From contig JAMCUI010000009.1 of the NCBI GenBank assembly GCA_023379265.1, positions 252,908-316,907 on the forward strand: DNA of 64,000 nucleotides, written 5' to 3'. Numbering within the stretch: the stretch's first letter is position 1; each line of letters begins with the position of its first letter. Origin of the DNA: Patescibacteria group bacterium (GTDB taxonomy: Bacteria > Patescibacteriota > Microgenomatia > 2-02-FULL-39-11). This document shows, one piece after another, positions 37,810-62,192 of the stretch. Both the position numbers and the translations under genes were made by a program. Below the pieces are notes generated by a model. The model was not told where the DNA came from and made no database searches. It was given only the letters and a program-made list of their open reading frames with translations.

Positions 37810-37815
37810 ATCTAA

Positions 37816-38862: not shown

Positions 38863-38940
38863 AAAAAGTTATTATACATTTTATTTTTTCTTATGACCAG
38901 CTGGCTAATTAAAAACCGATTGTACTGTTACTCTTACACT

Positions 38941-39828: not shown

Positions 39829-39831
39829 ATC

Positions 39832-42814: not shown

Positions 42815-42898
42815 AGTATATAGAACTTATTTCAAAACCCTAGCTCGCCGGATTTGAGTTATTATCCGTTAGTAAACGGTTTAGTTTTACAACAGCTA

Positions 42899-43696: not shown

Positions 43697-43733
43697 AAAT
43701 ATTTGATTTACATTCTATTTAATTATAATCTAT

Positions 43734-45716: not shown

Positions 45717-45717
45717 C

Positions 45718-46497
45718 TCACTTCCATACCTTCCACGGCGGATTTTCGCTGTTCCAGATGCCGTTGAGCTCGTCATATTCCTTGTTAGTGTCGACAGCAT
45801 ACCAGAAGCCGGTATGCTTGTAGATGGAAAGCTGAGAAATTTTGGCCAGTCGGGTGAGGGCCGCATGTTCCAACTCTGCCGGTTTCTGGTACTTAAAATA
45901 ATCCCTCTTGAAGACCATATATCCGCCGTTTGCCCAGTCGGACATATAAGGTTTTTCCTTAAACTCCACGATTTTGCTGTCGTTTCCTACTTTTACCACT
46001 CCAAACTTAAATTTTGGATGGATTCCAGTGATGGTTCCTATCGTGTTTTGTTTCTTATGGAACTGCACCAGTTTTCCGATATCAAGGTTCGTCACCCCGT
46101 CTCCATAAGTCACCATAAAATTTTTATCACTTTTAGGGATATAACTTTCACAAAGAAGAATCCTTTCTCCCGGAAGGGTATCCATACCCGTATCTACAAA
46201 AGTGATTTTGAAATCGTCTATTTCTTTTCTGTGTTCCCAGTGATAGGCGGTTTTGTGGGTTTTTGTCTCGAGTGTAAAATCTGTGGTAAAAGCTTTCTGG
46301 TTGAGGAAAAAATCCTTGATATAGTTGGCCTTATAACCTAAAGCCAAAATAAATTCGTTAAAGCCGTAATGGGCGTATATTTTCATAATATGCCAGATTA
46401 TTGGTTTTCCGCCAATATTTATCATCGGTTTTGGTTTGTATTCAGTTTCCTCTTTGAGTCTGGTACCTGTACCACCGCATAAAATTATTGTTTTCAT
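45718..46497 (-). CDS. ddhA: Glucose-1-phosphate cytidylyltransferase
   Basis: 'MKTIILCGGTGTRLKEETEYKPKPMINIGGKPIIWHIMKIYAHYGFNEFILALGYK' is near-identical in pattern to RfbF '[42 protein letters not shown]'. Confidence 0.85.
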   Translation of the reverse strand: MKTIILCGGTGTRLKEETEYKPKPMINIGGKPIIWHIMKIYAHYGFNEFILALGYKANYIKDFFLNQKAFTTDFTLETKTHKTAYHWEHRKEIDDFKITFVDTGMDTLPGERILLCESYIPKSDKNFMVTYGDGVTNLDIGKLVQFHKKQNTIGTITGIHPKFKFGVVKVGNDSKIVEFKEKPYMSDWANGGYMVFKRDYFKYQKPAELEHAALTRLAKISQLSIYKHTGFWYAVDTNKEYDELNGIWNSENPPWKVWK

Positions 46498-46659
46498 ACA
46501 GCCTGGATTATAGCAGAACTGGTTGTAAGTTGTTAGTTTTGGGTTGTGAGTGGAGAATGGCTAAATTTTATTATTTAAGAATTAGTAAATTTGTTCATTG
46601 ATCAAAAATTAGAAATTATAATTGAAAATTATACTTGGGCATTATGAGTAGTTCTATAG

Positions 46660-46665
46660 TATAAT
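46660..46665 (+). promoter_or_regulatory. Candidate -10 element (TATAAT) in the divergent intergenic region
   Basis: TATAAT at 46660-46665 within 'tctatagtataattatg', 12 nt upstream of the ATG at 46678. The 180-nt AT-rich spacer separates the minus-strand ddhA start from the plus-strand carbamoyltransferase start. Confidence 0.3.
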
Positions 46666-46677
46666 TATGAAGTTTTT

Positions 46678-48393
46678 ATGGGTACTGACGGTAAAATGCA
46701 TATTACTGTTTTGGGCATCCATGACGGGCACAATAGTGGAGCTGCTTTAGTGCGAGACGGTAAGGTTCTCTCGGCCATATCGGAGGAGAGACTGAATAAT
46801 ATAAAGAATTATTCCGGAGTGCCAGTACTTTCCATTGCCAAGGTTTTTGAAATTGCCGAAATACCTCCTGAGGAAACCGATCTTATCGCAATAGGATGTT
46901 TCGTCCGTGTGGGGCCACCCTATGCTGATATAAATTGGTTAGGTAGAATTCAGGTAGAATTGGCACCATATCTTCATTCACACTTATTTGCTAAAACATA
47001 TGTGAAATTGCTGCACAAATTCAGACAAACAGGTCGATTGAAGGATTTATTTGAAAGTTTGGGAATAGGGGATAAAAAAATCATATTTATAGAACACCAT
47101 CTAAGTCATGCAGCATGTGCTTATTACGGGTCAGGTTTCAAGGATGAGACACTGATTCTCACTCTTGACGGGTCAGGGGATGGGCTATCAGCGACTGTCT
47201 CAGTAGGAAAAGACTGTAGAATCAAAAGGATTGCCGAGACGACATTCTATGACAGTTTGTCAAACAATATATACAGTGAAATCACAGGGTACTTGGGGAT
47301 GAAGAGGTGGGAACATGAATACAAGGTGATGGGTCTTGCTCCATATGGTAGAGATGACGGTTTGGTAGATGAATTTAAAAAAATTGTCAGGATAAATCCG
47401 GCAAAAACTCTGGAGTTTCAGAATATTTTCGGCGCCTATTTATACGATGTTACCAAAAACTTGGTTCCAATTTTAGCCGGGCGGCGATTTGACAATATTG
47501 CTTGGGCGACTCAGAAATATTTTGAAGATTTGGTTTCCCAGTGGGTAAAAAATGCGATAGATCAGACCGGTGTTCATAATGTAGTCTGTAGTGGCGGGTC
47601 ATTTCTGAACGTTAAGGCGAATAAGGTGATAAGGGAATTGCCTGAAGTGAAAAAAGTCTTTTTTTACCCGGCCGCTGATGATGGCGGGACTCCGGCGGGG
47701 GCTGCCATTGAAGGGTATGTCAGGTTGTGCAGGGAAAAGAAAATAAAACCGGTGGTTGAGCCGATTGGTGATTTATATTTTGGTCAGCAATATTCTGACG
47801 AAAAGATAAGCGCTATTTTGAAAAAATCAAATTGGAAAAAAAAGGCAGTAAATTTAGGAAAAGGGATAGCAAAAGAGGTTGCTAGATTACTAGGTAAAGG
47901 AAAGATTGTCGCCAGGTTTGCCGGACGGGATGAGTGGGGTCCAAGAGCATTGGGAAATCATAGTATATTGGCAGATCCCCGCGATCTGCGTGTAATTTCA
48001 AAACTGAATTTTGCTATCAAACAGAGAGATTTCTGGATGCCTTTTGCCGCGTCCATTCTGGAGGAGGATGCTGGAGAATATTTGAAGGATTATAGGGGAC
48101 AAGCAAGATATATGATTGAAGCTTTCGATACAAAAGAAAAAGCAGCTGAAATTACGGCAGCTCTCCATCCTTACGACCTGACATGCCGGCCTCAGACAGT
48201 AAACGATTGGAATCCCGGTTACAGAAGTATATTGACGGAATTTAAAAAACTGACGGGAGTCTCAGGAATTCTAAATACTTCATTTAACCTGCACGGGTTT
48301 CCAATGGTGGGTACTCCTGACGTTGCTCTTTCCACTTTTGAAAATTCAGGATTGGATGCGCTTATTCTTGAAAATTTCTTAATTACTAGATGA
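46678..48393 (+). CDS. NodU/CmcH-family carbamoyltransferase
   Basis: 'ITVLGIHDGHNSGAALVRDGKVLSAISEERLNNIK' N-terminal signature. 571 aa; 'EHHLSHAACAYY'. Confidence 0.7.
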   Translation: MGTDGKMHITVLGIHDGHNSGAALVRDGKVLSAISEERLNNIKNYSGVPVLSIAKVFEIAEIPPEETDLIAIGCFVRVGPPYADINWLGRIQVELAPYLHSHLFAKTYVKLLHKFRQTGRLKDLFESLGIGDKKIIFIEHHLSHAACAYYGSGFKDETLILTLDGSGDGLSATVSVGKDCRIKRIAETTFYDSLSNNIYSEITGYLGMKRWEHEYKVMGLAPYGRDDGLVDEFKKIVRINPAKTLEFQNIFGAYLYDVTKNLVPILAGRRFDNIAWATQKYFEDLVSQWVKNAIDQTGVHNVVCSGGSFLNVKANKVIRELPEVKKVFFYPAADDGGTPAGAAIEGYVRLCREKKIKPVVEPIGDLYFGQQYSDEKISAILKKSNWKKKAVNLGKGIAKEVARLLGKGKIVARFAGRDEWGPRALGNHSILADPRDLRVISKLNFAIKQRDFWMPFAASILEEDAGEYLKDYRGQARYMIEAFDTKEKAAEITAALHPYDLTCRPQTVNDWNPGYRSILTEFKKLTGVSGILNTSFNLHGFPMVGTPDVALSTFENSGLDALILENFLITR

Positions 48394-49577
48394 AAATTCT
48401 TCAATTAGTCCCCTACTTTTATCCAGCTCTTTCAGTTGGAGGAAGCGCGACAGCGGTCTATAGTCTCTCCGGAGAGTTGGTCAAGCGTGGTCACAAAGTA
48501 ACCGTATATACGACTGATGTTAACCATAGCATGCCGGAAAAGAAAATGCTGGTAAATAAAAGAGTCAGGATTGGTGGTTTTGATGTTTATTATTTCAGAA
48601 ATATATCAAATAGTCTTGCGTTTAGAAACCATATTTTTTTCCCTCCCTATTTTTTCACTGAGATAATCAGACACATTACCGATTTTGATATTGTCCATAT
48701 GCATGAAATTTACACCCTTATGCATCTCTGGACAGCTTTTTTGGCAAGAAAACAGGGGATTCCGTATATTTTGACAGGACACGGTACGGCAGTGTTGGGT
48801 GAAAAAGAAGGTAATATGGGAAGAAAAAAGTTGTTTTACTCTTTTGGAGGAAAAAAACTTCTATTGGGTGCATCAAGGATTGTCGCTTTGACTGAGAAGG
48901 AAAAAAGGTCTTACCTTAAACTGGGAGTGGAAGAAAAAAATATTAGGGTTATCCCAAACGGTATAAACCCAGAATTATTCCACAAACTGCCTAAAAAAGA
49001 AGTGTTTAGAAATAAAATGCGACTAGTGAAGGATGATTGTGTCATACTTTATCTAGGAAGACTTCATGCAAAAAAAGGAATTGAGCTTTTGATAAAATCC
49101 TTAAAACTCCTAAAGAATGAGCATTTGTTAGTAAAGTTGGTGATTGCGGGCCCAGTGGAGCAGGAGGATTATCTTAAAAGGCTAAAAACCATTATAGAGA
49201 AAGAAGGTCTTTCCCAAAACGTGATTTTTACAGGCAACCTGACAGGAAAAGAAAAAATGGAAGCTTATTCCAGTGCGGATATATTTGCTCTGACATCGTA
49301 CTCCGAAGGACTGCCCGTTTCGGTTCTGGAGGCCGCTGTCTGCGGACTTCCACTTCTTTTATCCGAAAATTCAGGGGTGCCGATGATAGAAAAATATAAC
49401 GCCGGGGTATTAGTGAAAAATGATTTAGACAGTATTGTAAAAGGTCTGGAAAGAATTTTGAAAAAGGATAATTTCCGCAGATATTACGGAGATAATGCCA
49501 AAAAGATGGCGCAAAAAGAATATTCTATTTCCCGGACAGCTTTTATGATTGAAAAAGTTTATAAAGAGTTTGTGTAA
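48390..49577 (+). CDS. GT4-family glycosyltransferase
   Basis: 'MKILQLVPYFYPALSVGGSATAVYSLSGEL' and 'SYSEGLPVSVLEAAVCGLPLLLSENSG'. ATGA overlap. Confidence 0.75.
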   Translation: MKILQLVPYFYPALSVGGSATAVYSLSGELVKRGHKVTVYTTDVNHSMPEKKMLVNKRVRIGGFDVYYFRNISNSLAFRNHIFFPPYFFTEIIRHITDFDIVHMHEIYTLMHLWTAFLARKQGIPYILTGHGTAVLGEKEGNMGRKKLFYSFGGKKLLLGASRIVALTEKEKRSYLKLGVEEKNIRVIPNGINPELFHKLPKKEVFRNKMRLVKDDCVILYLGRLHAKKGIELLIKSLKLLKNEHLLVKLVIAGPVEQEDYLKRLKTIIEKEGLSQNVIFTGNLTGKEKMEAYSSADIFALTSYSEGLPVSVLEAAVCGLPLLLSENSGVPMIEKYNAGVLVKNDLDSIVKGLERILKKDNFRRYYGDNAKKMAQKEYSISRTAFMIEKVYKEFV

Positions 49578-49579
49578 TT

Positions 49580-51532
49580 ATGTGCGGAATTGCAGGAATC
49601 TATAATTTCGATAAAAGAAGTGTTGAGTCTTATGTTATTCACAGGATGAACAATGTCATGGTGCATAGAGGTCCTGATGGTCAAGGTGAACATTTGGAAG
49701 AAAATATCGGCTTGGCAAACCGCAGGCTGGCAATTATTGATCCTACAACAGCCGGAAACCAACCCATGGCGACCGCTGATGGGACACTCTGGATTACGTT
49801 TAATGGAGAGATATTTAATTTCGAAAAGCTGAAAAAAGATTTAATAGGTAGGGGTTATCATTTCAGATCACACACTGATACTGAGGTAGTATTAAACGGA
49901 TACAGGGAATACGGACACATGTTTGTAAAAAAACTTATCGGCCAGTTTGCCTTTTGCATCTGGGACAGGAGACAATCAAGGTTTATACTGGCCCGTGACC
50001 AGTTGGGCGTAAATCCTCTCTACTGGACCAGAATAGGTAACGCTTTTATTTTTGCCTCAGAATTGAAGGCAATATTGGCGTCAGGGCTGGTCAAAAAGGA
50101 GATAAACCCCGAGGCTTTACATCATTATCTTTCTATATTTTCCATCCCCAGTCCCATGACGATAATAAAAGGTGTAAATAGTCTTTTGCCGGGTAGAGTG
50201 ATGACGGTGGATAAAGGAGGCGTCAGGATAGAAAAGTACTGGGAACTCCCCGTTGGTTTATGGCAGAATAAAAACATTTCGGAAGGAGAGGAGATAGAGG
50301 AATTAAAAAGTCAACTGGTATCTGCAGTATCCTATGCCAAGGTATCAGATGTGCCGGTAGGCGCGTATCTCTCAGGTGGCGTGGATTCCTCGACAGTTGT
50401 TGCGCTTCTTTCCATGTCGCAAACCAAGCCCGTAAGGACATATTCTCTCTGGTCAGAGGGTGGTGAGGCTTATGATGAAAGAAAATACGCCAGCCTCGTT
50501 GCAAAACGTTACGGGACTGTTCATACAGAGTTTACGGTATCTCAAAGTGATTTAATAAGCAGCCTTCCTGAAATTATCTATTACTTTGATCAGCCAACAG
50601 GTGGATCACTCGAGACTTATTTTATCTCCCGATTGGCAGCCAAAGACGTAAAAGTTGCATTATCTGGACTCGGGGGCGATGAACTTTTTGCCGGATATCA
50701 TAGTGAACTATACAATACCAAGTCTATAGGAGACATATACAACCATATTCCTCCGGCTCTCCGTTCACTCCTTTTTTTACTGATGAAAAGAATTGCTTTC
50801 CGGTCAGACTGGAAAAAAGTTTTGTCAGTATCACAGGATTTTTTTAACCTGCCGACTCTGGTACGGCGTAGCCTTTATCTTTATTTTGCTTATCAGGAGG
50901 AAGAGAAAAAAAATCTTTATAGCAAGTCTTATCTTTCGCTGCAAAAGGGGAGTTACAGTACTCAAAGTTACTTCGAAGGACTTTATCAGAAAATAAAAGG
51001 CTGGCATCCGGTAGATCAACTAAACTATATTGACCTGAAAAGCTATACCAGAGACGATTTGCTTTTGGGTATGAATATGATGAGTATGGCAAATTCTCTC
51101 GAGGCAAGAGTGCCCCTTCTTGACCCCAGACTGGTTGAGTTTTCCGCCAGAATCCACCCTTCCCGTAAATATAGAGATGGAATTTCCAAATATATTCTCA
51201 AGAAAGCCGTAGCGGACTGGTTGCCAAAGGAAGTGGTAAATCACAAAAAAACCGGTTTTGCCATTCCTAGAGTGATTTATATGAAAGGAATATTGAAACC
51301 TTATATAAAATCAGTTTTGAGCCCAGAGTCCTTAAAGAACAGAGGAATATTCAATGATAAATATATTACCGAAGTGGTGAATAAATTTTATGGTTCAAAA
51401 CAGGGCAAGATGCTCTGGAGTGAGCATTTGCGCGTCTGGATACTTTTTGTATTTGAGCTCTGGTGCCGGATCTATCTGGATAATACAAAAATCGCCAAAC
51501 CGGCAGTCACGTTGGATGATCTTGCCATATGA
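49580..51532 (+). CDS. Asparagine synthase (glutamine-hydrolysing)-like amidotransferase (AsnB/WbpS type)
   Basis: 'MCGIAGIYNF' Ntn Cys nucleophile, 'HRGPDGQG', 'RRLAIIDP', and 'YLSGGVDSS' PP-loop ATP pyrophosphatase motif. Confidence 0.8.
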   Translation: MCGIAGIYNFDKRSVESYVIHRMNNVMVHRGPDGQGEHLEENIGLANRRLAIIDPTTAGNQPMATADGTLWITFNGEIFNFEKLKKDLIGRGYHFRSHTDTEVVLNGYREYGHMFVKKLIGQFAFCIWDRRQSRFILARDQLGVNPLYWTRIGNAFIFASELKAILASGLVKKEINPEALHHYLSIFSIPSPMTIIKGVNSLLPGRVMTVDKGGVRIEKYWELPVGLWQNKNISEGEEIEELKSQLVSAVSYAKVSDVPVGAYLSGGVDSSTVVALLSMSQTKPVRTYSLWSEGGEAYDERKYASLVAKRYGTVHTEFTVSQSDLISSLPEIIYYFDQPTGGSLETYFISRLAAKDVKVALSGLGGDELFAGYHSELYNTKSIGDIYNHIPPALRSLLFLLMKRIAFRSDWKKVLSVSQDFFNLPTLVRRSLYLYFAYQEEEKKNLYSKSYLSLQKGSYSTQSYFEGLYQKIKGWHPVDQLNYIDLKSYTRDDLLLGMNMMSMANSLEARVPLLDPRLVEFSARIHPSRKYRDGISKYILKKAVADWLPKEVVNHKKTGFAIPRVIYMKGILKPYIKSVLSPESLKNRGIFNDKYITEVVNKFYGSKQGKMLWSEHLRVWILFVFELWCRIYLDNTKIAKPAVTLDDLAI

Positions 51533-52689
51533 AAATTGTTCACCTTATTGATTATTTCCAGCCCCAAGTAGGTTACCAGGAGACATTTTTGGCAAAAGAG
51601 CATAGAAAAGCAGGGCATGACGTATGTGTGGTAACGTCAGACAGGTATTTCCCTTTTGAAGGATACAGATCATCATATTTTTCTCTTTTGGGTGAGAGAT
51701 ATGTGGGGGAGGGAGAAAGAAATGAGAATGGGATAAGGACTGTGAGATTAAAGAATATTGAATTTCCCGGGACAAATCTGATTTATCTCTTGAAATTAAA
51801 AAGGACATTAGCAGATATTTCACCTGACGCAGTTTTTTGTCATGGGATGTATTCTATTACGTCTTATTTTGCAGCCAAAATCAAAAATGAGTTGGGATAT
51901 AAGCTGGTTTATGATACTCATGCGGCGGGATTTAATACACAATTTGGTACTTTTTTGAAAAAGGCTTACCGTTTTTTCTTTCGAAAATTTGCCGTGCCCC
52001 TCATCAAAGATCAGGCTGACAGTATTTTTGCCATAGGCGAAGCGGAGCAGGATTTTATCTGCACTGAATTCGGGTTAAATCGGAATCACGTTTCAATAAT
52101 AAGGCTTGGGGTGGATACCGAATTATTTACGGCAAGTGTGGTTAAAAGAAAGGAAATAAGGAAAAAAATGGGAGTTGCGGCTGACGGTGTTGTCTGTATT
52201 TTCTCAGGGAAAATCAGTCCCAGAAAAGATATTGAGACTCTACTTCTGGCGGTTAAAAAAATAAATGATACTAAAATCAAGGTACTTCTGGTGGGAGGCG
52301 GTAAAACGAATCATGTATCAGACCTGAAAAAGATTCTTGACGCAAAAGAGCTGATTGTTGAACATTTTGTAAGCAATGATAAATTACCCGATTATTACAG
52401 CGCCGCCGATATTGCGGTCTGGCCGGGAGACCCGTCACAGGGGATGCTTGAAGCAATGTCCTCTTCACTGCCGCTTATAGTTCCTGAATGGTACGGTTCT
52501 GAATTTTTGCAAAAAAGCGGGGGCGTACTTTTTTTCAAAAGAAAAGATATTCGTGGTTTAGCACAAAAAATAGCCAAATTATCGTATAATAAGAACAAAA
52601 GAAAGGAAATCGGAATGAATGCCCGATATTATATCGGGAGGTATTTCAGTTGGAAAGAAATTGCACGGCAGACTTTATCTCTCTTGTGA
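51529..52689 (+). CDS. GT4-like (GT-B fold) glycosyltransferase
   Basis: 'MKIVHLIDYFQPQVGYQE...GHDVCVVT' and 'DPSQGMLEAMSSSLPLIVPEW'. Confidence 0.65.
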   Translation: MKIVHLIDYFQPQVGYQETFLAKEHRKAGHDVCVVTSDRYFPFEGYRSSYFSLLGERYVGEGERNENGIRTVRLKNIEFPGTNLIYLLKLKRTLADISPDAVFCHGMYSITSYFAAKIKNELGYKLVYDTHAAGFNTQFGTFLKKAYRFFFRKFAVPLIKDQADSIFAIGEAEQDFICTEFGLNRNHVSIIRLGVDTELFTASVVKRKEIRKKMGVAADGVVCIFSGKISPRKDIETLLLAVKKINDTKIKVLLVGGGKTNHVSDLKKILDAKELIVEHFVSNDKLPDYYSAADIAVWPGDPSQGMLEAMSSSLPLIVPEWYGSEFLQKSGGVLFFKRKDIRGLAQKIAKLSYNKNKRKEIGMNARYYIGRYFSWKEIARQTLSLL

Positions 52690-53527: not shown

Positions 53528-54817
53528 ATGGAAACAATGATCAAAGTCAATAAATTGTCTAAAAAATACAGGTTCGGGCAAAACCAGCCGTACAATACTT
53601 TGCGCGATACTCTGGTTGGTCTGGTGCATAACCCCAAAAATATTTTCGGAAAAAGGAAGCATGAGGAAGGACAGTTGGCCGAAAATGAATTCTGGGCCCT
53701 CAAAAACATTTCCTTTGATGTTGGCGAAGGGGAAGTGTTGGGGATAATAGGAAAAAACGGTGCGGGCAAAAGTACTCTTCTTAAGGTTCTTAGCCGCATT
53801 ACCCCTCCAACAGAAGGTGAAATTAGGCTAAGGGGAAGAGTGTCAAGTCTGCTTGAGGTGGGTACGGGTTTTTCGGGAGAATTAAGCGGTAGGGAGAATA
53901 TATATCTAAACGGAGCCATATTAGGAATGACTAGGAATGAAATTAGGCGCAAGTTTTCCCAAATTGTGGATTTTGCCGAAGTGGGAAAATTTATCGATAC
54001 GCCGGTAAAATATTATTCTTCAGGCATGTATGTCAGGCTGGCATTTGCGGTGGCGGCACACCTTGAACCGGAAATACTTCTGGTGGATGAAGTGTTGGCG
54101 GTGGGAGATGTTGGTTTTAGGAAAAAAAGCATGGGGAAGATGAGGGAGATATCCAAATCATCGGGGCGTACTATACTTTTTGTCAGTCATGATATGTCTT
54201 CAATCCAAAATATATGTTCACGGGCAATTTTGCTAAGAGACGGAAAATTAGCATACAGCGGTTATGCCGATGAGACTATAAAAAAATATCTTGAGGAAAG
54301 CGGGGGAGAGACTGCCGATAAATGGTTGGAATGGAAACCCGAAGCTTCAGGAAGATATCCTTACGGTGAAATTATAAAACTTAAAAAGTTTTATATTAGC
54401 GATGTTGCCGGGAAGACGGTAAAAGGCAGATTGTTTAATAGCAAGCAGTATTTCGTCAATATTGACGCTGATTTTAAAAAAAGGGACTCGCGTCTGGTTT
54501 TTGCCGTTGCCTTTTATGATGAAAAGCAGACAGTACTTTTTGCCTCAGATATAAACGATAACGGTTTAGTTGATTTTGGAACTATAAAACCGGGTCATAT
54601 CAAACTTCAATTCCTCCTGCCGGTCGAATTACTTTCAAATGAAACATACGAAATTGAGTTGTTGTGCGCTTTGCATCACGTCGGTTGGATATTTCCGCCC
54701 AACAACGACTGCCGTCTGAAGTTTAGTTTTTTCCGGGACAAGGATGACAATCCTTATTCCAGTGATACGCGAATGGGGCTTTTGGCACCGGTATTAAAAT
54801 GGTCGGTTATTACCTGA
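53528..54817 (+). CDS. wzt: ABC exporter ATPase (Wzt/TagH-like) with ~170-aa C-terminal carbohydrate-binding-type extension
   Basis: Walker A 'GIIGKNGAGKST', signature 'YSSGMYVRLAF' and Walker B 'ILLVDEVLAVGD'. The C-terminal tail beyond the ~250-aa NBD is predicted beta-rich ('KLQFLLPVELLSNETYEIELLC'). Confidence 0.8.
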   Translation: METMIKVNKLSKKYRFGQNQPYNTLRDTLVGLVHNPKNIFGKRKHEEGQLAENEFWALKNISFDVGEGEVLGIIGKNGAGKSTLLKVLSRITPPTEGEIRLRGRVSSLLEVGTGFSGELSGRENIYLNGAILGMTRNEIRRKFSQIVDFAEVGKFIDTPVKYYSSGMYVRLAFAVAAHLEPEILLVDEVLAVGDVGFRKKSMGKMREISKSSGRTILFVSHDMSSIQNICSRAILLRDGKLAYSGYADETIKKYLEESGGETADKWLEWKPEASGRYPYGEIIKLKKFYISDVAGKTVKGRLFNSKQYFVNIDADFKKRDSRLVFAVAFYDEKQTVLFASDINDNGLVDFGTIKPGHIKLQFLLPVELLSNETYEIELLCALHHVGWIFPPNNDCRLKFSFFRDKDDNPYSSDTRMGLLAPVLKWSVIT

Positions 54818-54824
54818 GAATTTT

Positions 54825-55685
54825 ATGGCTGATAGTGTTTCCAAAAAGAGTGATTATTCAATAGGGGTTGTAACCTTTCTTGATAGATACGAAGAGACTT
54901 TCAAAAAACTGGCAATAGATTTGGCCAGGTATTTCCCTGATGTGGAAAAAAACGTTATACTGAACGGTTTTCCCGACAAAAACAGGCAGCTTAAGTATCT
55001 TAAAGAAGCCACAGGTTTTCTTTCCGGTCTTGGTTTTAACCATGTTTTAACATTTGAAACGCACCAGTCTTTAGCCAGAGGTTGGAATCTGCTTGTTATA
55101 TTATCCTCAAAATCCAAGGTTCTCATATTAAATGATGATTGCCTGATGGGGCCTGGTTTTCGTAAGGAGTTTGAGACACAAAAGGGAAATAGAGATTGGA
55201 TTTTTATAAACGAGTCATACAGCCATTTTATGACTTCCAAAAACGTGGTTAGGAAAGTGGGTTGGTTTGACGAAAGGTTCAAAGGGATAGGCCACGAGGA
55301 TGGGGATTTTTCCAGACGTTGTGCTCTGGCCGGTTATCCATACGATGTAGGAATTGATTGTCCCACCCTGAAAAATCTTAAAGTAGAAAGCAGAGAAGTA
55401 AGCTATTTGGAAACAGATAACAATAACAAGAAAGGATTTCTAGGAAAAGTCAGGAATTATCTAAATAGAGAAAAGTCCGGCAGAAGCGGAAATTACTCCA
55501 CCTATAATGAATATTTTTTCAGAAAAAAGTGGAAACATGCCGACAGGCCGTTACCCGGCTATACGCTAATTCCCATCCGCCATCTGAAGAAATACCGCGG
55601 TATCAAGCCGGGCGCAGGCGCTTATTGCAAGCTGGCTCCCGGTATGGAAACACCGCTTTTTTATCCTCTTGATATTCTTAATTAA
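54825..55685 (+). CDS. GT-A fold glycosyltransferase (GT2-like)
   Basis: 'IGVVTFLDRY', 'LILNDDC' (DXD) and 'GWFDERFKGIGHEDGDFSRRCALAGY', which parallels the GT2 'G-FDE-F--Y-ED-D---R---AG' block. Confidence 0.5.
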   Translation: MADSVSKKSDYSIGVVTFLDRYEETFKKLAIDLARYFPDVEKNVILNGFPDKNRQLKYLKEATGFLSGLGFNHVLTFETHQSLARGWNLLVILSSKSKVLILNDDCLMGPGFRKEFETQKGNRDWIFINESYSHFMTSKNVVRKVGWFDERFKGIGHEDGDFSRRCALAGYPYDVGIDCPTLKNLKVESREVSYLETDNNNKKGFLGKVRNYLNREKSGRSGNYSTYNEYFFRKKWKHADRPLPGYTLIPIRHLKKYRGIKPGAGAYCKLAPGMETPLFYPLDILN

Positions 55686-55693
55686 AGCCGCCT

Positions 55694-56647
55694 ATGCAAA
55701 AAACCAAACTAGTTATCTATATTCCTTCCTACAACAGAGGACAAGTGTTGTCAGAACAGCTGGAAAGGATAGTAAACCAGTGGGGAAAATACAGGGATAG
55801 GATTCGTCTGGTAATCAGCGATAACTTTTCCAGTGATCCGGTATATAAAACATTGTCAGCTAAATTTATCCAAAAGAACATATCTTTCAGGCGAAACATC
55901 TCCAATATAGGTGGCAATGAGAATATTATGCAAGGGTTCCTTACTGCCGGGGAGGATGATTATCTATGGATACTTTCGGATGATGATATGCTGACTTCTT
56001 CTGCTCTTGAAGAGATTTTCTGGGGAATAGATAAGAATACAGATATTATACATATTGGTGAGACCGAAAGGATAATCCAAACAGAGTTAAGCCTGAATAA
56101 TGTTTTTACAATAACAAAAGGGGCAGGGTTTGGATTGACCAGCGTGGTAATTTTCAGCGTGAACTTCATAAAAGATTTTATATACTACGGCTTTGAGTAT
56201 ATGGATTCTTCTTTTCCCCATTTTGCCATACTTCTTTCTTCCCTGAGGGAACATAAAAAAGCCAAATTGACTATAGTCAGGCATAAATACGTTTTTACCA
56301 AAGAAACGGTTGCGACACACGGTTCCGGGGATTATTTTTTGAGCGCAGTGGGTTTTGGTTATTTGTCTGATTTTCTTGAGAAACCTAACCAGCGGAAATT
56401 TCTTTGGGATTGGATTACATCTACCTGGCCGCTATATTTTGCTGCCAGAAGACATTATCCTGCCGCTTTCCACAAATCTGAAGGTTATCTAAGGTCATTT
56501 GGATTACGATTTTTCTTTTTCCTTTTTTTTGCGGGAATACTTTACGGTTTGCAATCCGCGCAGAAAAAAATTCTTATGGCAGCTGTAGTTGAGGCAAAAA
56601 AATCCTCTTTTGGCCGAAGTATAATAGAGAGTTTGAAAAAACTTTAA
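55694..56647 (+). CDS. Family 2-like glycosyltransferase
   Basis: 'LVIYIPSYNRGQVL', 'LVISDNFSSD' and 'WILSDDDM'. Confidence 0.55.
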   Translation: MQKTKLVIYIPSYNRGQVLSEQLERIVNQWGKYRDRIRLVISDNFSSDPVYKTLSAKFIQKNISFRRNISNIGGNENIMQGFLTAGEDDYLWILSDDDMLTSSALEEIFWGIDKNTDIIHIGETERIIQTELSLNNVFTITKGAGFGLTSVVIFSVNFIKDFIYYGFEYMDSSFPHFAILLSSLREHKKAKLTIVRHKYVFTKETVATHGSGDYFLSAVGFGYLSDFLEKPNQRKFLWDWITSTWPLYFAARRHYPAAFHKSEGYLRSFGLRFFFFLFFAGILYGLQSAQKKILMAAVVEAKKSSFGRSIIESLKKL

Positions 56648-56845
56648 TAGTGATTAATCAATAAATAAGAAATTATTATTGTTTGGGCATAAAAATCAGT
56701 ATTTAAAAAGTGAAATCCTTACTTTTGAATATGTAATAAACATTAGTTTGTTTAAAAATTAATAAGTAAAGCGGTTTGTCTCAAGAAAAGGATTAAAAGT
56801 CCCAAAATAGTCAGCATACATACAATAGATTAAATTTCCGTTAAT

Positions 56846-57547
56846 ATGGTTAGAAAATACATCAATTCAGTTATAAGAATAATAGACAATTTATGGCAAA
56901 AAAATGATGATCTGCGACAGTTAATCTTTAGGCGAATGAAAAGATCTTACAGCCAATATTTCGAAGATTTAGAACTGGATAAAGCTTTTAAAAATAAAAC
57001 TCTTGGTTTTTATGTAGATGTTGGGGCAAACGACCCAAGAATTCTTTCCAATACGTATCATTTCTACTTAAAAGGATGGAGAGGAATAAACATAGAGCCT
57101 GATACAGATTTGTTTACAAAGTTGGAAAAATATAGAAAAGAAGATATAAATTTGAATATAGGAATAGCAAGAAGAAGAGGAAAAAGAAAATTCTTTAATA
57201 TTTCGGCTCCTACACTTTCTACTTTCTCCGAAATAACTGCAATAAGGTCAGAATCGGAAGGCTATAAGATAAACGAAATTAAATATATAGACGTAATTCC
57301 ACTGTCACAAATATTAGATAAGTATTTGGTTAATGGAAAGGTGGATTTTTTTTCTATAGATGTAGAAGGATATGAATCTGAAGTGCTTAGAAGTAATAAT
57401 TGGCGAAAATACAGACCTGAATTTATTATTATCGAAATAAACAGAAGTGGAAAGGAGATAAAATCATTCTTAGAATCAAAAATGTACAGACAGATTTTCG
57501 AAAATGGTACTAACGCAATATTTAGAGATAATAATCTTAAAAATTAA
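56846..57547 (+). CDS. FkbM-family SAM-dependent methyltransferase
   Basis: 'GFYVDVGANDPRILSN', 'NIEPDTDLF' and 'VDFFSIDVEGYESEVL'. Visibly lower GC than the neighbours and flanked by ~200-nt and ~115-nt AT-rich spacers. Confidence 0.65.
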   Translation: MVRKYINSVIRIIDNLWQKNDDLRQLIFRRMKRSYSQYFEDLELDKAFKNKTLGFYVDVGANDPRILSNTYHFYLKGWRGINIEPDTDLFTKLEKYRKEDINLNIGIARRRGKRKFFNISAPTLSTFSEITAIRSESEGYKINEIKYIDVIPLSQILDKYLVNGKVDFFSIDVEGYESEVLRSNNWRKYRPEFIIIEINRSGKEIKSFLESKMYRQIFENGTNAIFRDNNLKN

Positions 57548-57661
57548 GATTGCTAATACAAAGAAATTATTTATGAAATGTACGGTGCTAATGAAGTAAA
57601 AATCTGACAGGAAAAGATATAGTCATTCTTGAAAATTTTGGAGGAAGGTTAATACAAACTG

Positions 57662-58792
57662 ATGAATTTTATTCTAGCAATTTGCGTAGATATTCAGGCA
57701 TTCTATAAAAATAAAATTTTGGATGGTAATTATGCCCGTAAGTTTCCAGGCGCAGGTTGGGTATCAGAATTTCTTCCTTTAGCCAAAAAACGAGACGTCG
57801 ATGTAGCGACTGGAGACATTGCTTTAGAGATGGTACATGCCGGGAAATGGAAAGCTAAGGATATATTTGTAATTTCGGAACTTGATGCCAGCCAGGCAAA
57901 AGAACTGATTGGGCTCGGCGCCCGGCCATTTATACTTTCTGCTTTCGAATCACCCCTTATTGCCTATAATTTTTACGATAAACTGAAAGATTTATCGGTA
58001 AAGTTTCCTTATAGACTTCTTTTCCCGGGAGCTTTCGGGTTAGCAGCGGGAGATGGCAAAAACATGAGGGCGTATTTTCCGAATTTTGACCCGTCTGAAA
58101 TAAAAAGGCCTGTCGCGTGGGACAAAAGGAAATTTATTTGTATGGTGGCGGCAAATAAATTCTGGCGGGAAAAATTCGTTTTCCCTTTATATTTGTCACC
58201 TTTAAGGTACGCCAAGTGGCTGGCGTTTCAGCGGGAAAAAGTAACTTCTCCAACAAGAAGGTACGCAATAAAAAATGAGTTGCAGTCAAAGAGGTTTGAA
58301 GCAATTGAGTATTTCGGGAAAAGAAAAGAATTGGATTTATTTGGTTACGGTTGGAAGGATAGGGAGAGATTACCTGACGGTTTTAGAGAAAGATTAGATC
58401 CAATTCTTGATAAGATTAAACCAAATTCGTGTAAGGATAAAAATAGAACTATTTCGGGATATAAATATGCCGTCTGTTTCGAAAATACCGCATATCCGGG
58501 GTATATTACGGAGAAAATTATCGACTGTTTTACGGCAGGGGTGATACCGGTATACCTGGGAGCGCCGGATGTGGAAAAGTATATACCTCCTGAAACATTT
58601 GTCGATATGCGCAAATTTGATTCATGGGAGAAACTTGAGAGGAAATTAAAACGCATAAACGAACAAGAGGCTAAAAGGATGATTGAGGCAGGCAGAAAAT
58701 TCTTGATGGGCAAAGAGGGTATAAAATACAGCTTTTCCGGTTTTGCTAAAGATATTGATGATTTAGTTCAGAAAGAAATAAACAATCTATGA
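57662..58792 (+). CDS. GT10-family alpha-1,3(/4)-fucosyltransferase
   Basis: 'YKYAVCFENTAYPGYITEKIIDCFTAGVIPVYLGAPDVEKYIPPETFVDMRKFDSW' matches the FucT alpha-1,3 motif (compare Helicobacter FutA 'FHLCFENSQGYGYVTEKIIDAYFSHTIPIYWGSPSV'). A GGAGGAAGG sequence lies upstream. Confidence 0.8.
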   Translation: MNFILAICVDIQAFYKNKILDGNYARKFPGAGWVSEFLPLAKKRDVDVATGDIALEMVHAGKWKAKDIFVISELDASQAKELIGLGARPFILSAFESPLIAYNFYDKLKDLSVKFPYRLLFPGAFGLAAGDGKNMRAYFPNFDPSEIKRPVAWDKRKFICMVAANKFWREKFVFPLYLSPLRYAKWLAFQREKVTSPTRRYAIKNELQSKRFEAIEYFGKRKELDLFGYGWKDRERLPDGFRERLDPILDKIKPNSCKDKNRTISGYKYAVCFENTAYPGYITEKIIDCFTAGVIPVYLGAPDVEKYIPPETFVDMRKFDSWEKLERKLKRINEQEAKRMIEAGRKFLMGKEGIKYSFSGFAKDIDDLVQKEINNL

Positions 58793-59721
58793 AATATTCA
58801 AACGAAGATTTAGGAGTATTTATTCTTACTTATAATAGGCCGCGGTTATTGGAGCAGACGTTATTGAGCTTTGTTCACCAGACTATTAAGGGATTTAAAC
58901 TAACAGTGATTGATAATGGATCAACAGATAGAGAAATGAAGCAAATGAAAAAGAAAATTATTAATTGGGGATATAACTATATGAGACTCAGGAAAAATTT
59001 AAACCCAAGTCTGATCTTGGAACCAATAAAGCCGAAAATGAAAACAAAATTATTTATGCTTTTTCATGATGATGATTTAATACACCCTGATTACTTAAGA
59101 CAAGCAATAAATTTGTTCAACCGTTACCCTGAGACAATATTTATCGGCTCCGCAATGTCTTTTGACAGTCAGCCTGAAAAGTTATCTTGGCCTAATTTTA
59201 CTGGTGAGTTTGAGGTGTTTGATACAGTAAATGACTTTGCTGCATTTATTTATAAAGGATTTCCGCTTCATTTTGCTTCCGTCGTTTACGTAACTAGATA
59301 TTTCAAAGAGGCATGCAATCCTTTTGACGTGTATGGCAAAATAGCTGACAGACCTTTTTTATTTGATATGGCTGGAAATAAAAAGAGAGAGATAATTGTA
59401 CTAACGGAATGTTATATCAGATATCGTACTCACTATAACCAGGATTCGCAGAATGTAAATACCGGTCCTTTCAAGGATCAGCTTTTTGCACTGCACAGAA
59501 GATATCGCGAGCTTTTGGGTGATAATATTTTGACCGCAAACGGTAGGATTTTTGTCAGAAAAAATTACGAGTATTTATATTTAGAAGCGTTAAAATTAAA
59601 AAAAACCACATCCCCGGAAGAATATATTATAGAAGCTTTGGAAAAAGGCGCGACGACCCGGTTGGCTATAAATTACGGCAGACTGCATTTATATCTAAAA
59701 AGATTGCTAGGATATGGGTAA
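58789..59721 (+). CDS. Family 2 glycosyltransferase
   Basis: 'LGVFILTYNRPRLLEQTL', 'LTVIDNGSTD' and 'LFHDDDL'. ATGA overlap. Confidence 0.65.
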   Translation: MKYSNEDLGVFILTYNRPRLLEQTLLSFVHQTIKGFKLTVIDNGSTDREMKQMKKKIINWGYNYMRLRKNLNPSLILEPIKPKMKTKLFMLFHDDDLIHPDYLRQAINLFNRYPETIFIGSAMSFDSQPEKLSWPNFTGEFEVFDTVNDFAAFIYKGFPLHFASVVYVTRYFKEACNPFDVYGKIADRPFLFDMAGNKKREIIVLTECYIRYRTHYNQDSQNVNTGPFKDQLFALHRRYRELLGDNILTANGRIFVRKNYEYLYLEALKLKKTTSPEEYIIEALEKGATTRLAINYGRLHLYLKRLLGYG

Positions 59722-60715
59722 GAAAAAGAATATTAACATAATCTCAGAATCTGCAAAGTCTGGCAAAATTACGGGTCCGTATAAGGTATTCCTTAATACT
59801 TGCAAAGGGTTTGGCCAAATCGGCCAGCCATATACGGTTAATCACAATATTTATAGTTGCGAAAGGAATTGGATACACGATTCGGTCGGCGGATTTATGG
59901 AGATGGCAGTATCAGGTTTGCCGGGAGTGGTTGGACCCAACATATTTATTTTGCCAGATGATATTCCAAAGTATCGGCCCAAACTCAAAAACTGCATTTA
60001 TGTCCATCCAAGTGTTTGGCCGATAAGATTGTGGGAGAGATTAGGGTTTGATGAGTGTAAATTAGAAATATGGTCAGCAGGCATTGATATAGATTATTTT
60101 ATTCCGGAAAAAAAAGAAAAATCAAAACAGGTAATGGTATATTTTAAGGAACGTGAGGCCAAATTACTGGATAAAGTTTTGGAAGTTTTATCCTCAGAAA
60201 AAATTGAACCGGCTGTCATAAATTACGGTAATTACAAAGAAGACTATTATTTGGATACATTACAAAACTCAATTTTCGGAATTTGGCTGGGACGACACGA
60301 AAGCCAGGGTATAGCGATGCTAGAGGCGCTTTCGGCAGGATTGCCGCTTTTGGTGATTGACGTGAACTCTCTTTTTGAGGTATCCGCAGAAAACCATTAC
60401 AGGTTTCCTCCGGGTCTGAAGAATTTCCGTGTAACTAGCGCGCCATACTTCAGTGACAGATGCGGAATTATCATAAAGGATATAGGCAGATTGGAAGGGA
60501 CAGTTAGACAAATGACGGAAAACTACAAGAAATATAACCCTCGACAGTACATATTGGAAAATTTATCTCTAAGAAAATCAGCCCAAAGAATAGTAGGCCT
60601 GTTTGATAAATTGGAGAATGACGGATTTTTGCAAAAGTTTACAGGGTCGGTTGACAAAGAATTTCAATTAAGCGTCAGGTCAAAATTGTTACTCAAAATA
60701 AATAAATTTTTATGA
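59714..60715 (+). CDS. GT-B fold (GT4-like) glycosyltransferase
   Basis: 'GRHESQGIAMLEALSAGLPLLVIDVNSL' C-terminal GT-B motif. Confidence 0.55.
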   Translation: MGKKKNINIISESAKSGKITGPYKVFLNTCKGFGQIGQPYTVNHNIYSCERNWIHDSVGGFMEMAVSGLPGVVGPNIFILPDDIPKYRPKLKNCIYVHPSVWPIRLWERLGFDECKLEIWSAGIDIDYFIPEKKEKSKQVMVYFKEREAKLLDKVLEVLSSEKIEPAVINYGNYKEDYYLDTLQNSIFGIWLGRHESQGIAMLEALSAGLPLLVIDVNSLFEVSAENHYRFPPGLKNFRVTSAPYFSDRCGIIIKDIGRLEGTVRQMTENYKKYNPRQYILENLSLRKSAQRIVGLFDKLENDGFLQKFTGSVDKEFQLSVRSKLLLKINKFL

Positions 60716-61389
60716 GAGAAAATGTAAAAATCACAAATGTCCGGAAACTGCACCTGGGTTGCGGGGAAATATACCTGCCCGGTTATATAAACATAGATTT
60801 TCCCCAAAGCAAGCATACTGTCCAGGAAAATGCGAAAGTCGATCTTTATGCTGATATAAATAAGCTTAAATATAAGCCAAATTCAATAGGTGAGATAAGG
60901 TTGCACCATGTATTTGAGCATTTTGAGAGACCGGTAGCCTGCGCGCTTTTGGTTTCGTGGCGATCCTGGTTGACTGTAGGAGGAAGACTAAGAATTGAAG
61001 TGCCTGATTTTGACAGGACCGCATTGAATGTAATCAATCCCTTCACTAGTTTCCGGACGAAAACCGTGGCACTGAGGCATATTTTCGGCTCAAATGAAGC
61101 TTTGTGGGCGGTACACTTTGAAGGATGGTCAAAAAATCGGTTAACGGAAATTCTTGAGACGATCGGATTCAGATTGGTTAAAACGAGAAAGAATTCCTGG
61201 AAAGGAACATATAATATTGATATTACCGCAGTTAAGACGGAATCTGTTTTAAGTGTGGCAGATTATTATCGTCAGGTAAGGGATTATCTCGGTAATTTTA
61301 CCCTGGATGAGTCGGAAGGGGAAAAGCGCATACTGATGGTCTGGATGCAGAAATATAATAGACAGATTAAGTTATCATTTGCCAAATGA
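60712..61389 (+). CDS. Class I SAM-dependent methyltransferase
   Basis: 'KLHLGCGEIYLPGYINID' (motif I), 'LHHVFEHF' and 'GGRLRIEVPDF'. Confidence 0.6.
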   Translation: MRENVKITNVRKLHLGCGEIYLPGYINIDFPQSKHTVQENAKVDLYADINKLKYKPNSIGEIRLHHVFEHFERPVACALLVSWRSWLTVGGRLRIEVPDFDRTALNVINPFTSFRTKTVALRHIFGSNEALWAVHFEGWSKNRLTEILETIGFRLVKTRKNSWKGTYNIDITAVKTESVLSVADYYRQVRDYLGNFTLDESEGEKRILMVWMQKYNRQIKLSFAK

Positions 61390-62192
61390 AAAAAATAAGC
61401 GTAATTATTCCGACTTTCAACAGATCAAAAAGTTTGATCCGTGCAGTAAAAAGTGTAATTGGTCAAACGGTCAAACCTTTTGAGATTATTGTTTCTGACG
61501 ACGGGTCAAATGATGGTAGTGAAAAAATCGTAGGCAGGATTGGTGATCCGATAGTAAAATGGATAAGCGCAAAACATACAGGACTTCCGGCCGCCGTGCG
61601 AAACAAAGGCATAAAAAAATCCAGGGGAGACTGGCTTGCATTTCTGGACAGTGATGATAAGTGGGAAGAAAACAAGTTGGAAGAACAAATAGAGATTATT
61701 GATAAGTATAAATGCGGAGCTGTTTGTGCCAACTCTTCAAGAGTAACTAATAATGCTAGTAAAGCAGGTTTTGTTTCCCCTTTTTCCGGCAGAATTATCC
61801 GCTTAACTGATTTGTTAAAAGAAAATTATGTCGTCACCAGTTCTGTTTTGATAAGGAAAGATTTGATTCAAAGGACAGGAGGTTTTCCTGAAGATAAGAA
61901 TTTATTGGTGGGTGAGGATTATGCCTTGTGGCTTAGGGTTGCTGCCGAGACAGATTTTTACTTTATTAATAAACCTCTTTTAAGGTATACCGATAACCCT
62001 AAAAGCAGTATAAGAAAGCTTGGCAAAGATGATTTTTTACAAAGGGTGGAAGTATTGGAAAATTTCAGCCGTTATCTGGCCGAAAAAAAATACCCATTTG
62101 GTATGAGACTAAAAACACATATATATAAGACATTATTGTATTACTTTTTTTACACTAACCTACTGATAAGGAAAACTAAATATTTGATATGA
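61386..62192 (+). CDS. Family 2 glycosyltransferase
   Basis: 'ISVIIPTFNRSKSL', 'IIVSDDGSNDGS' and 'FLDSDDKW'. Confidence 0.75.
   Translation: MKKISVIIPTFNRSKSLIRAVKSVIGQTVKPFEIIVSDDGSNDGSEKIVGRIGDPIVKWISAKHTGLPAAVRNKGIKKSRGDWLAFLDSDDKWEENKLEEQIEIIDKYKCGAVCANSSRVTNNASKAGFVSPFSGRIIRLTDLLKENYVVTSSVLIRKDLIQRTGGFPEDKNLLVGEDYALWLRVAAETDFYFINKPLLRYTDNPKSSIRKLGKDDFLQRVEVLENFSRYLAEKKYPFGMRLKTHIYKTLLYYFFYTNLLIRKTKYLI

Follow-up and report, generated by a model that had tools for sequence, protein, structure and literature searches.

A conserved carbamoyltransferase and AsnB-like amidotransferase cassette adjoining a mosaic wzt gene in a surface-glycan island of a Patescibacteria bacterium

Organization of the locus

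The region analysed is a 64-kb stretch of contig JAMCUI010000009.1 (positions 252,908 to 316,907, forward strand) from a Patescibacteria group bacterium of the candidate phyla radiation (CPR), called the window below, in which the genes for a carbamoyltransferase (CT) and an AsnB-like glutamine-dependent amidotransferase (AsnBL) alternate with those for two GT4 glycosyltransferases (GT4a and GT4b) ahead of a Wzm/Wzt transporter. The gene set was defined by an open reading frame (ORF) map and a Pfam scan of the window, and the four plus-strand ORFs described in an earlier note on this DNA were all recovered at the same coordinates, with lengths of 571, 395, 650 and 386 amino acids. The features are as follows, modules A and B being the conserved and the exchangeable part of the locus, respectively.

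46678..48393, plus strand: CT, carbamoyltransferase of the TobZ/NodU/CmcH two-domain type, 571 amino acids
48390..49577, plus strand: GT4a, GT4 glycosyltransferase, 395 amino acids
49580..51532, plus strand: AsnBL, AsnB-like Ntn glutamine-dependent amidotransferase, 650 amino acids
51529..52689, plus strand: GT4b, GT4 glycosyltransferase, 386 amino acids
52700..53524, plus strand: Wzm, ABC-2 permease (Pfam ABC2_membrane), 274 amino acids
53528..54301, plus strand: Wzt nucleotide-binding domain (ABC_tran), residues 1-258, last element of module A
54302..54817, plus strand: Wzt C-terminal beta domain, residues 259-429, first element of the variable module B
54825..63367, plus strand: rest of module B (from Pfam), namely a 286-residue protein of unknown family, GT2, FkbM methyltransferase, GT10, GT2, a 333-residue protein of unknown family, a 225-residue probable methyltransferase (u225), GT2 and GT4
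46498..46677, no strand: 180-bp intergenic region between divergent operons, with promoter-like sites on both strands (consensus scan)

According to the gene table of the flank, module B runs on past the window end with methyltransferases, GT11, GT10 and GT2. The tight coupling of the two tailoring genes to their GT4 neighbours, which had been noticed before, is evident at each junction: the CT stop overlaps the GT4a start in an ATGA (48390-48393), the TAA of GT4a is followed after 2 nt by the ATG of AsnBL at 49580, and a second ATGA (51529-51532) joins the AsnBL stop to the GT4b start. A purine-rich spacer of 10 nt then separates the GT4b stop from wzm, for which the gene calls make 52700 (274 amino acids) the most likely start rather than the longest-ORF start at 52619. 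Upstream of CT, the consensus scan found a plus-strand promoter-like site (TGGGCA-18-TATAAT, 46636-46665) and a minus-strand one (CTAACA-18-TATAAT with TG, 46536-46507) that faces a CDP-sugar operon. Both blocks are kept in the relative L002 (86%), where the centre of the intergenic region has diverged, and both sites may act as promoters. The ORF map, the Pfam domains and these sites bear out the view that CT heads the plus-strand operon beside the divergent region.

A conserved cassette and a mosaic wzt gene

The order CT-GT4-AsnBL-GT4-Wzm-Wzt recurs in three more loci, L002 (AsnBL 86% identical) and the two Gottesmanbacteria-type loci L004 and L012. Relative to L004 and L012, identities are 69-70% for CT, 59-61% for the Wzt nucleotide-binding domain, 53-56% for Wzm, 52-54% for AsnBL, 42-47% for GT4b and 35-37% for GT4a, and the neighbours of CT in both of these loci are Fcl-like and RmlD-like 6-deoxyhexose genes. 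The shorter arrangement AsnBL-GT4-Wzm-Wzt is also found in eight Opitutae/Verrucomicrobia loci and one Chloroflexia locus. Both glycosyltransferases carry the Pfam domains Glyco_transf_4 and Glycos_transf_1; the NCBIfam scores of GT4a are all under cut-off (HpsP 193, XYAG1 167, TuaC 100 and stp2 89 bits), and only L002, L004 and L012, the CPR cassette loci, have recognisable orthologues of GT4b (42-67% identity).

The match of Wzt to L004 and L012 spans only the first 60% of the protein, and the two parts of Wzt, split at residue 258 for a domain-wise BLAST comparison, have different relatives. For the ATPase domain, identity is 58-64% across all the Wzm/Wzt loci compared, with or without CT or AsnBL. 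The C-terminal 171 residues share 48-50% identity with L091 and L092 and 31% with L093, while BLAST detects nothing in common (E>10) between them and the Wzt C-termini of L004, L012 and the Opitutae group. L091, L092 and L093 also provide the best full-length Wzt homologues (49-59% identity), and all three are without GT4b and have neither CT nor AsnBL within 10 kb. The genes downstream follow the C-terminal domain: GT10 (54%), GT2 (42%), u225 (52%), GT2_268 (42%) and GT4_392 (40-56%) have counterparts in L091/L092, and the GT11 past the window end is 45% identical to that of L091 and 39% to that of L093, whereas GT10, the two GT2, u225, GT4_392 and GT11 are not in L004 and L012. The locus is thus bipartite, with a conserved module A that extends from CT through the Wzt ATPase domain and an exchangeable module B made up of the Wzt C-terminal domain and the downstream transferases and methyltransferases, and the sequence comparison places a recombination breakpoint inside wzt, near residue 258 (~54301), between the two domains.

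The identity of the C-terminal domain had to be approached through structure prediction. The ATPase domain finds Aquifex aeolicus Wzt (6AMX/8DKU, ~215 bits) in a sequence search of the PDB; the C-terminal domain finds no match there even at E<=10, and its match to Pfam Wzt_C is sub-threshold (21 bits vs 30.4). In an AlphaFold (AF2) model of Wzt built with 38 sequences (predicted local distance difference test, pLDDT, 83 overall) this domain is all-beta with a pLDDT of ~90, and Foldseek aligned the model over its full length to A. aeolicus WzmWzt (8DNE/8DKU, E 1e-34, 420-427 columns), so that it is plausibly a glycan-reading module of the carbohydrate-binding type. The locus in this respect resembles the E. 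coli O8/O9a and A. aeolicus WzmWzt systems, in which Wzm is paired with a Wzt whose ATPase is N-terminal and whose C-terminal beta domain is of the carbohydrate-binding type. It is also like the O8/O9a-type systems in that GT4 genes by the transporter are conserved and serotype-type genes co-vary with the Wzt C-domain; it differs from them in its CPR host, which lacks an outer membrane and lipopolysaccharide (LPS), in the position of the breakpoint inside wzt, and in that no WbdD-like terminator was recognised at the CPR locus.

The earlier note had proposed that the carbamoyl and amide groups are caps read by the Wzt C-terminal domain. A domain modelled as carbohydrate-binding is what such a role as non-reducing-end caps would call for, and there is a parallel in Nod factors, whose non-reducing terminal residue is carbamoylated by NodU-type enzymes and which leave the cell by a related ABC-2 system. 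The proposal is nevertheless contradicted by the co-variation of the C-terminal domain with module B genes in loci without CT or AsnBL (L091, L092 and L093), and the loci that do share CT and/or AsnBL with the window (L004, L012 and the Opitutae group) have C-termini of no detectable similarity. The domain instead goes with GT10/GT11 and methyltransferase genes, and methylated termini are the classical caps that Wzt proteins read. We therefore regard carbamoyl or amide caps as quite improbable.

The carbamoyltransferase

CT matches both Pfam models of its family over their full length (Carbam_trans_N, 2-346/346, E 2.2e-35; Carbam_trans_C, 1-170/170, E 4.2e-52) and has the Kae1-like plus YrdC-like two-domain architecture of TobZ, NodU, CmcH, NovN and GdmN. 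Its best matches in the PDB, at 160-190 bits, are the carbamoyltransferase 7XB6 (190 bits), NovN, GdmN and TobZ, the last (3VEN) aligning over CT residues 273-571. The HHxxH motif is present as EHHLSHAAC, aligned to PHHRAHLAC of 7XB6, and we take its histidines to be metal ligands of the Kae1-like domain, as in TobZ. Because CT is a two-domain protein of the TobZ/NodU/CmcH type with O-carbamoyltransferases as its PDB relatives, O-carbamoylation of a sugar, as proposed previously, is the natural reading of its sequence. A precedent for carbamoyltransferases in glycan clusters is WapO, which is responsible for O-carbamoylation in the Pseudomonas LPS core (PMC8005017).

CT is not an orthologue of NodU (95.9 bits against an equivalog cut-off of 1000 for NF041651) and instead belongs to a very conserved subfamily of its own. 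This comprises more than 120 protein clusters at least 59% identical, with names from Gottesmanbacteria, Daviesbacteria, a metagenome-assembled genome (MAG) of a Pacearchaeota (DPANN archaeon), Dehalococcoidia, Thermodesulfobacteriota and Actinobacteria, and its sequence conservation far exceeds that of the glycosyltransferases encoded next to it, which suggests a conserved acceptor. In three loci the nearest partners of CT are 6-deoxyhexose genes, and the close homologues L175 and L176, which are without AsnBL, adjoin UDPG_MGDP_dh genes.

The AsnB-like amidotransferase

AsnBL combines a GATase_7 domain (E 5e-43) with an Asn_synthase domain (E 2e-84), and with its N-terminus MCGIAG (Cys2) and PP-loop SGGVDSS it is the Ntn-type glutamine amidotransferase that had been recognised from the sequence. 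In the alignment the glutaminase residues R50, N75, G76, E77 and D99 (numbered from Met1; R49, N74, G75, E76 and D98 in AS-B) are invariant, and the equivalents of Asp351, Glu352 and Lys449 of E. coli AsnB are conserved as well, the K450 column being invariant. The position of E. coli Glu348 (human Glu364) is occupied by Leu364, the motif reading LSGLGGDEL in place of LSGEGSDE, and leucine is invariant in 20 members of the clade; within the CPR clade all of LSGLGGDEL is unvarying. In human asparagine synthetase (ASNS) Glu364, a residue conserved in known asparagine synthetases, is required for activity, the E364A/Q variants being inactive (PMC6748925).

The simplest alternative would be that AsnBL is the plain asparagine synthetase of the organism and that its position in a glycan operon means nothing. 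Databases do label it asparagine synthase, and it passes the cut-off of the asn_synth_AEB profile (TIGR01536, 454.6 vs 267 bits). However, with an invariant Leu in place of the essential Glu, AsnBL cannot, on this sequence evidence, be counted among the housekeeping asparagine synthetases; the residue equivalent to Arg387 is probably also lost, in a gappy part of the alignment. AsnBL falls under the profile for E. coli-type asparagine synthetases (NF006949, 297 vs 499 bits), its best solved relative is the hydroxyamidotransferase TsnB9 (7YLZ, 205 bits) rather than E. coli AsnB (144 bits) or human ASNS (99 bits), and it is coupled start to stop to GT4 genes in an order that is conserved where AsnBL itself is only 52% identical. 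We consider a role in asparagine synthesis extremely improbable.

By sequence, AsnBL falls within the wide set of 'long' AsnB-like proteins encoded in polysaccharide loci. Among NCBIfam profiles it scores highest with TIGR03108, the XrtA/PEP-CTERM-associated amidotransferase (501.6 bits, cut-off 816.9), and both GT4 proteins weakly match the corresponding glycosyltransferase profile TIGR03088 (stp2). These scores are far under the cut-offs (89 and 67.5 bits vs 409 for the two GT4), and no exosortase or PEP-CTERM component was seen among the scanned ORFs of the window. The TIGR03108 score was rejected as a means of telling subtypes apart, with Leu-, Asp- and Glu-types and WbqG all at 437-678 bits, all below 816.9. 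A tblastn search of plasmids with AsnBL returned only generic 'asnB' or NAGGN-amidotransferase matches of ~34% identity.

Comparison with uronamide-forming enzymes

The earlier note assigned AsnBL to the family that converts uronic acids to uronamides. For this activity there is genetic support for WbqG, WbpS and PGN_1234; these three and the Helicobacter pullorum WbpS are the uronamide enzymes with experimental backing, and the literature puts all four near AsnBL in profile terms (PMC7468200, PMC6025236). AsnBL resembles WbqG of E. coli O121, WbpS of Pseudomonas aeruginosa O6 and PGN_1234 of Porphyromonas gingivalis in its length (630-650 amino acids), in the combination of Ntn-glutaminase and PP-loop, and in having TIGR03108 as its best profile below cut-off. 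The comparison was made with the E. coli O121:H19 O-antigen cluster (NZ_CP022407.1), which has genes for a tviB-like UDP-GlcNAc 6-dehydrogenase and an epimerase as well as asnB (which is WbqG, 630 amino acids), the last followed by two GT4 genes, the first overlapping WbqG. The profile pattern of WbqG (TIGR03108 528.5 bits, TIGR01536 459.8 bits) is close to that of AsnBL, and in both clusters the amidotransferase gene overlaps or abuts stp2-like GT4 genes within a surface-glycan cluster.

The differences are nonetheless substantial. WbqG carries Asp (LSGDAGDE) where AsnBL has Leu364 and AsnB has Glu; it shares 32% identity overall with AsnBL, which is no closer to it than to other subtypes, and the homologues nearest to WbqG, out of 161 sampled, all belong to the Asp type. 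Whereas the O121 cluster has a Ugd-family gene, the UDP-N-acetylhexosamine (HexNAc) 6-dehydrogenase, ~9 kb from wbqG, no such gene was found in the window (six-frame translation, phmmer, E<=10), in its 10-kb flanks or in the CPR loci L002, L004 and L012. O121 also exports by Wzx/Wzy and not by Wzm/Wzt, and the WbqG, WbpS and PGN_1234 hosts are unlike the monoderm CPR bacterium that carries AsnBL. Of the two findings that the earlier note named as jointly refuting a uronamide, one is thus borne out within the stretches searched, where no uronic acid source was detected; the other is not, as AsnBL does not look like housekeeping AsnB.

To relate the residue at the Glu348 position to genomic context, 160 loci of AsnBL homologues (80 from genomes and 80 from metagenomes) were typed by it and their neighbours within 10 kb recorded. 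The metagenome loci served as a replication set for the neighbour statistics only; among the matches listed they reach at most 39% identity and include no close CPR relatives. A Ugd-family neighbour is present in 11/36 Asp-type and 1/81 Leu-type loci (Fisher p 6.5e-6; 0.005 after collapsing seven Hymenobacter/Rufibacter loci). Leu-type loci in turn are enriched, relative to the Asp and Glu types combined, in a carbamoyltransferase neighbour (12/81 vs 1/56, p 0.015; 0.045 without the CPR loci), in Wzm/Wzt (15/81 vs 0/56, p 4e-4) and in a GT4 directly downstream (28/81 vs 6/56, p 0.001). The loci are not phylogenetically independent and the Leu type is not one clade. A single Leu clade was considered and rejected, since clustering by the unweighted pair group method with arithmetic mean (UPGMA) placed 60/78 Leu-type sequences in one pure cluster and the CPR clade outside it, about equidistant from the Leu and Asp types; because of this, the neighbour statistics bear on the CPR clade indirectly. 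No homologue outside the CPR clade, be it of the Leu, Asp or Val type, exceeds 41% identity to it, and at 3/4 other type-discriminating alignment columns the clade has the Asp-type (WbqG) residue.

AsnBL likely amidates some carboxylate, and the question is which. If it is a WbpS/WbqG-type enzyme that turns a uronic or HexNAc-uronic acid into its amide, the UDP-uronic acid would have to come from a dehydrogenase encoded elsewhere in the genome. The WbqG-like profile pattern and GT4 adjacency, the genetically supported precedents, the three discriminating columns shared with WbqG, the UDPG_MGDP_dh genes beside the close CT homologues L175 and L176, and weak matches of GT4a and GT4b to the teichuronic-acid transferases TuaC and TuaH are all consistent with such an enzyme. 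Against it stand the invariant Leu where WbqG has Asp, the low identity to WbqG, the lack of a Ugd-family ORF at the sites searched and the tendency of Ugd neighbours to track the Asp type. The uronamide claim is weakened by these results; a uronamide is a serious possibility that we would nonetheless not bet on, and the locus itself does not indicate it.

A second candidate is a non-uronate carboxylate, either the C1 carboxylate of a nonulosonic acid made through a NeuB homologue or an acidic non-sugar substituent. A NeuB-type nonulosonate synthase (37816-38862; 372.6 bits, slightly under the equivalog cut-off of 399.65) is encoded ~8 kb upstream of the cassette, adjoining an AP_endonuc_2 TIM-barrel protein (36991-37809), and the L004 operon continues after wzt with genes for NeuB, a CMP-sugar synthetase and a NeuC-like epimerase; another acid would also be compatible with the Leu-type pocket and with the lack of a detected Ugd. 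On the other side, L002 and L012 have no NeuB within 10 kb, only 2/81 Leu-type loci have one, Pfam and NCBIfam scans recognised no CMP-nonulosonate synthetase in the window, and we know of no precedent for amidation of a nonulosonic acid at C1. With NeuB not conserved alongside the cassette, a nonulosonic-acid substrate was rejected, and amidation of a non-uronate carboxylate in general appears unlikely.

A third idea, by analogy with the chemistry of GMP or argininosuccinate synthetase, is that CT and AsnBL act in sequence on one group, for instance by N-carbamoylation of an amino sugar followed by ATP- and glutamine-dependent amidation of the ureido carbonyl to give a guanidino-type group. 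It would fit the excess of carbamoyltransferases near Leu-type genes, the distance frequently being just one or two genes and the loci coming from several phyla (L021, L050, L060, L071, L083), and the fact that no carboxylate source is conserved with CT or AsnBL. However, it is pure inference, the statistics are weak as well as phylogenetically non-independent, and close CT homologues also occur without AsnBL. To our knowledge, all characterised enzymes with the architecture of CT are O- (or S-) carbamoyltransferases and AsnB-family enzymes adenylate carboxylates only. Such joint action on a single group is very improbable.

More broadly, the Leu-type enzymes could constitute a distinct, cross-phylum class of glycan amidotransferases marked by the LSGLGGDE motif (>600 genome matches), acting on a substrate other than a locally made uronic acid and recurring with GT4, Wzm/Wzt and the highly conserved CT, in which case the CPR cassette would install an unprecedented nitrogen-rich modification, either a non-uronate carboxamide or a carbamoyl-derived group to which CT and AsnBL both contribute, on a conserved linker of the main exported surface glycan. 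This is a speculative extension that we hold to be unlikely. Clustering of the neighbour families around Leu-type genes returned only GT4, GT2, a WcaF-like acetyltransferase, epimerases and DegT, and no carboxylate-forming enzyme.

The host and the surrounding glycan island

The entire window and 10 kb past each end consist of glycan genes, at least 84 kb in total, and the window is a single continuous glycan-biosynthesis island. The nearest named relatives of its proteins are from Candidatus Gottesmanbacteria, of which a related contig measures 1.12 Mb. CPR/Patescibacteria have genomes of ~1 Mb and live attached to hosts, and the island is an extraordinary share of their coding capacity. CPR are a monoderm clade (bioRxiv 10.1101/2021.05.31.446380), and therefore the O-antigen framing of the earlier note does not apply and the product must be a surface glycan linked to the wall, the membrane or an S-layer. 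The records L011 and L012 (CAZFNL010000137.1 and CAZJBV010000002.1), third-party annotation MAG entries titled 'uncultured Gammaproteobacteria bacterium', encode proteins closest to Patescibacteria/Gottesmanbacteria at a GC content of 35-39%, and the Gammaproteobacteria label of these cassette-bearing records is probably wrong.

Divergent from the cassette lies the following operon.

32956-46497, minus strand: glucose-1-phosphate cytidylyltransferase-like, 4,6-dehydratase, GFO/IDH/MocA, SDR, acetolactate-synthase-like thiamine pyrophosphate (TPP) enzyme, FkbM methyltransferase, epimerase, NeuB, TIM-barrel, GT2, methyltransferase and RfbH genes

RfbH clears its NCBIfam cut-off (635 vs 423 bits), and with a CDP-glucose-type nucleotidyltransferase and 4,6-dehydratase, RfbH, the TPP enzyme and FkbM the operon looks like a pathway for a branched-chain 3,6-dideoxyhexose (yersiniose-like, YerE-type). 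The first 32 kb of the window hold GT2 and GT4 genes, two YfhO-like proteins, a run of PMT-type GT-C proteins and Gmd/Fcl-like genes (29237-31222). The GT-C run is a tandem series of about seven PMT/PMT_2-type paralogues of 540-590 residues (6816-19316), of which the domain scan covered all but the four at 12795-19316, and it is accompanied by the two YfhO-like proteins and one PIG-V-like protein (also 3497-5809, 22580-24232 and 26203-27399); a set of this kind points to numerous glycosylation activities outside the cytoplasm. Proteins of 580, 286 and 333 amino acids (31192-32934, 54825-55685 and 59714-60715) have no or only sub-threshold Pfam/NCBIfam matches.

In module B, GT10 (57662-58792) and the GT10/GT11 genes of the downstream flank L006 (12926-13759 and 15760-16701) encode alpha-1,3/4- and alpha-1,2-fucosyltransferase-like proteins, and together with the Gmd/Fcl-like genes and several methyltransferases they suggest, by sequence similarity, a fucosylated and methylated outer glycan in a CPR bacterium. 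The FkbM methyltransferase gene of this module (56846-57547) has unusually long spacers on each side and sits where the GC content of the region is lowest (0.33, 56648-57661); it is missing from L002, in which 20 nt separate GT2 from GT10, and looks like a recent insertion.

A model for the cassette

Conservation of gene order across the four CPR loci and the mosaic structure of wzt lead us to favour, somewhat more than not, a model in which CT-GT4-AsnBL-GT4-Wzm-Wzt (ATPase domain) is a conserved cassette that assembles and decorates a conserved, non-serotype-specific part of a glycan exported by Wzm/Wzt in the monoderm CPR host. Assembly of this glycan would take place on a polyprenol carrier on the cytoplasmic side of the membrane, the two GT4 enzymes adding sugars. 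CT would activate carbamoyl phosphate with ATP to carbamoyl-AMP and transfer the O-carbamoyl group to a sugar hydroxyl, and AsnBL would hydrolyse glutamine at Cys2 and adenylate a carboxylate at the PP-loop site, giving a carboxamide via the acyl-adenylate; the carboxylate could come from a uronic acid made elsewhere in the genome. E. coli O8/O9a-type systems combine conserved GT4 adaptor transferases and a conserved Wzt ATPase domain with a serotype-specific Wzt C-domain, and by analogy with these and from the mosaic pattern the part made by module A may be a primer-proximal adaptor or common backbone rather than a cap. Module B would then add a variable, fucosyl-type, methylated outer part, and before export the matching Wzt C-domain would recognise the terminus of this part and not the carbamoyl or amide groups. 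The Wzm/Wzt transporter would deliver a wall-linked polymer, a lipoglycan or an S-layer glycan, and not LPS. Whereas gene content, coupling, cassette conservation, mosaic structure and active-site residues are directly observed, we infer the chemistry, the substrates and the position of the modified residues in the glycan.

Several points weigh against this model. The Leu substitution could mean that AsnBL has an altered chemistry, and no carboxylate-generating enzyme is conserved with the cassette. The adaptor role of module A is argued from the O8/O9a analogy and the mosaic pattern, and only four independent CPR cassette loci were compared. In the window no initiating phosphoglycosyl transferase, LCP ligase or O-antigen-ligase-like/O-oligosaccharyltransferase gene was recognised, so that the carrier and the final acceptor are assumed. 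The host taxonomy is based on the database names of MAG proteins, and two related MAG records are labelled Gammaproteobacteria.

Biological significance

The components of the cassette are all of known families, and non-carbohydrate tailoring in clusters for ABC-exported glycans is already well known; what is new is the CPR host, the conserved cassette, the intragenic wzt mosaic and the residue-level split of AsnB-like enzymes into Asp (WbqG-like) and Leu types. A single residue separates the Asp type, with WbqG as a validated uronamide enzyme, from the Leu type, a large group with other genomic partners, and from the Glu type of true asparagine synthetases. Two activities or more may therefore be concealed among the thousands of proteins of polysaccharide loci that are annotated as 'asparagine synthase', and this residue would be a simple marker for them. 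The mosaic in wzt indicates that modules for transporter specificity and for glycan tailoring are shuffled independently, and a tailoring cassette next to an exporter is a candidate determinant of the cell-surface identity of CPR bacteria.

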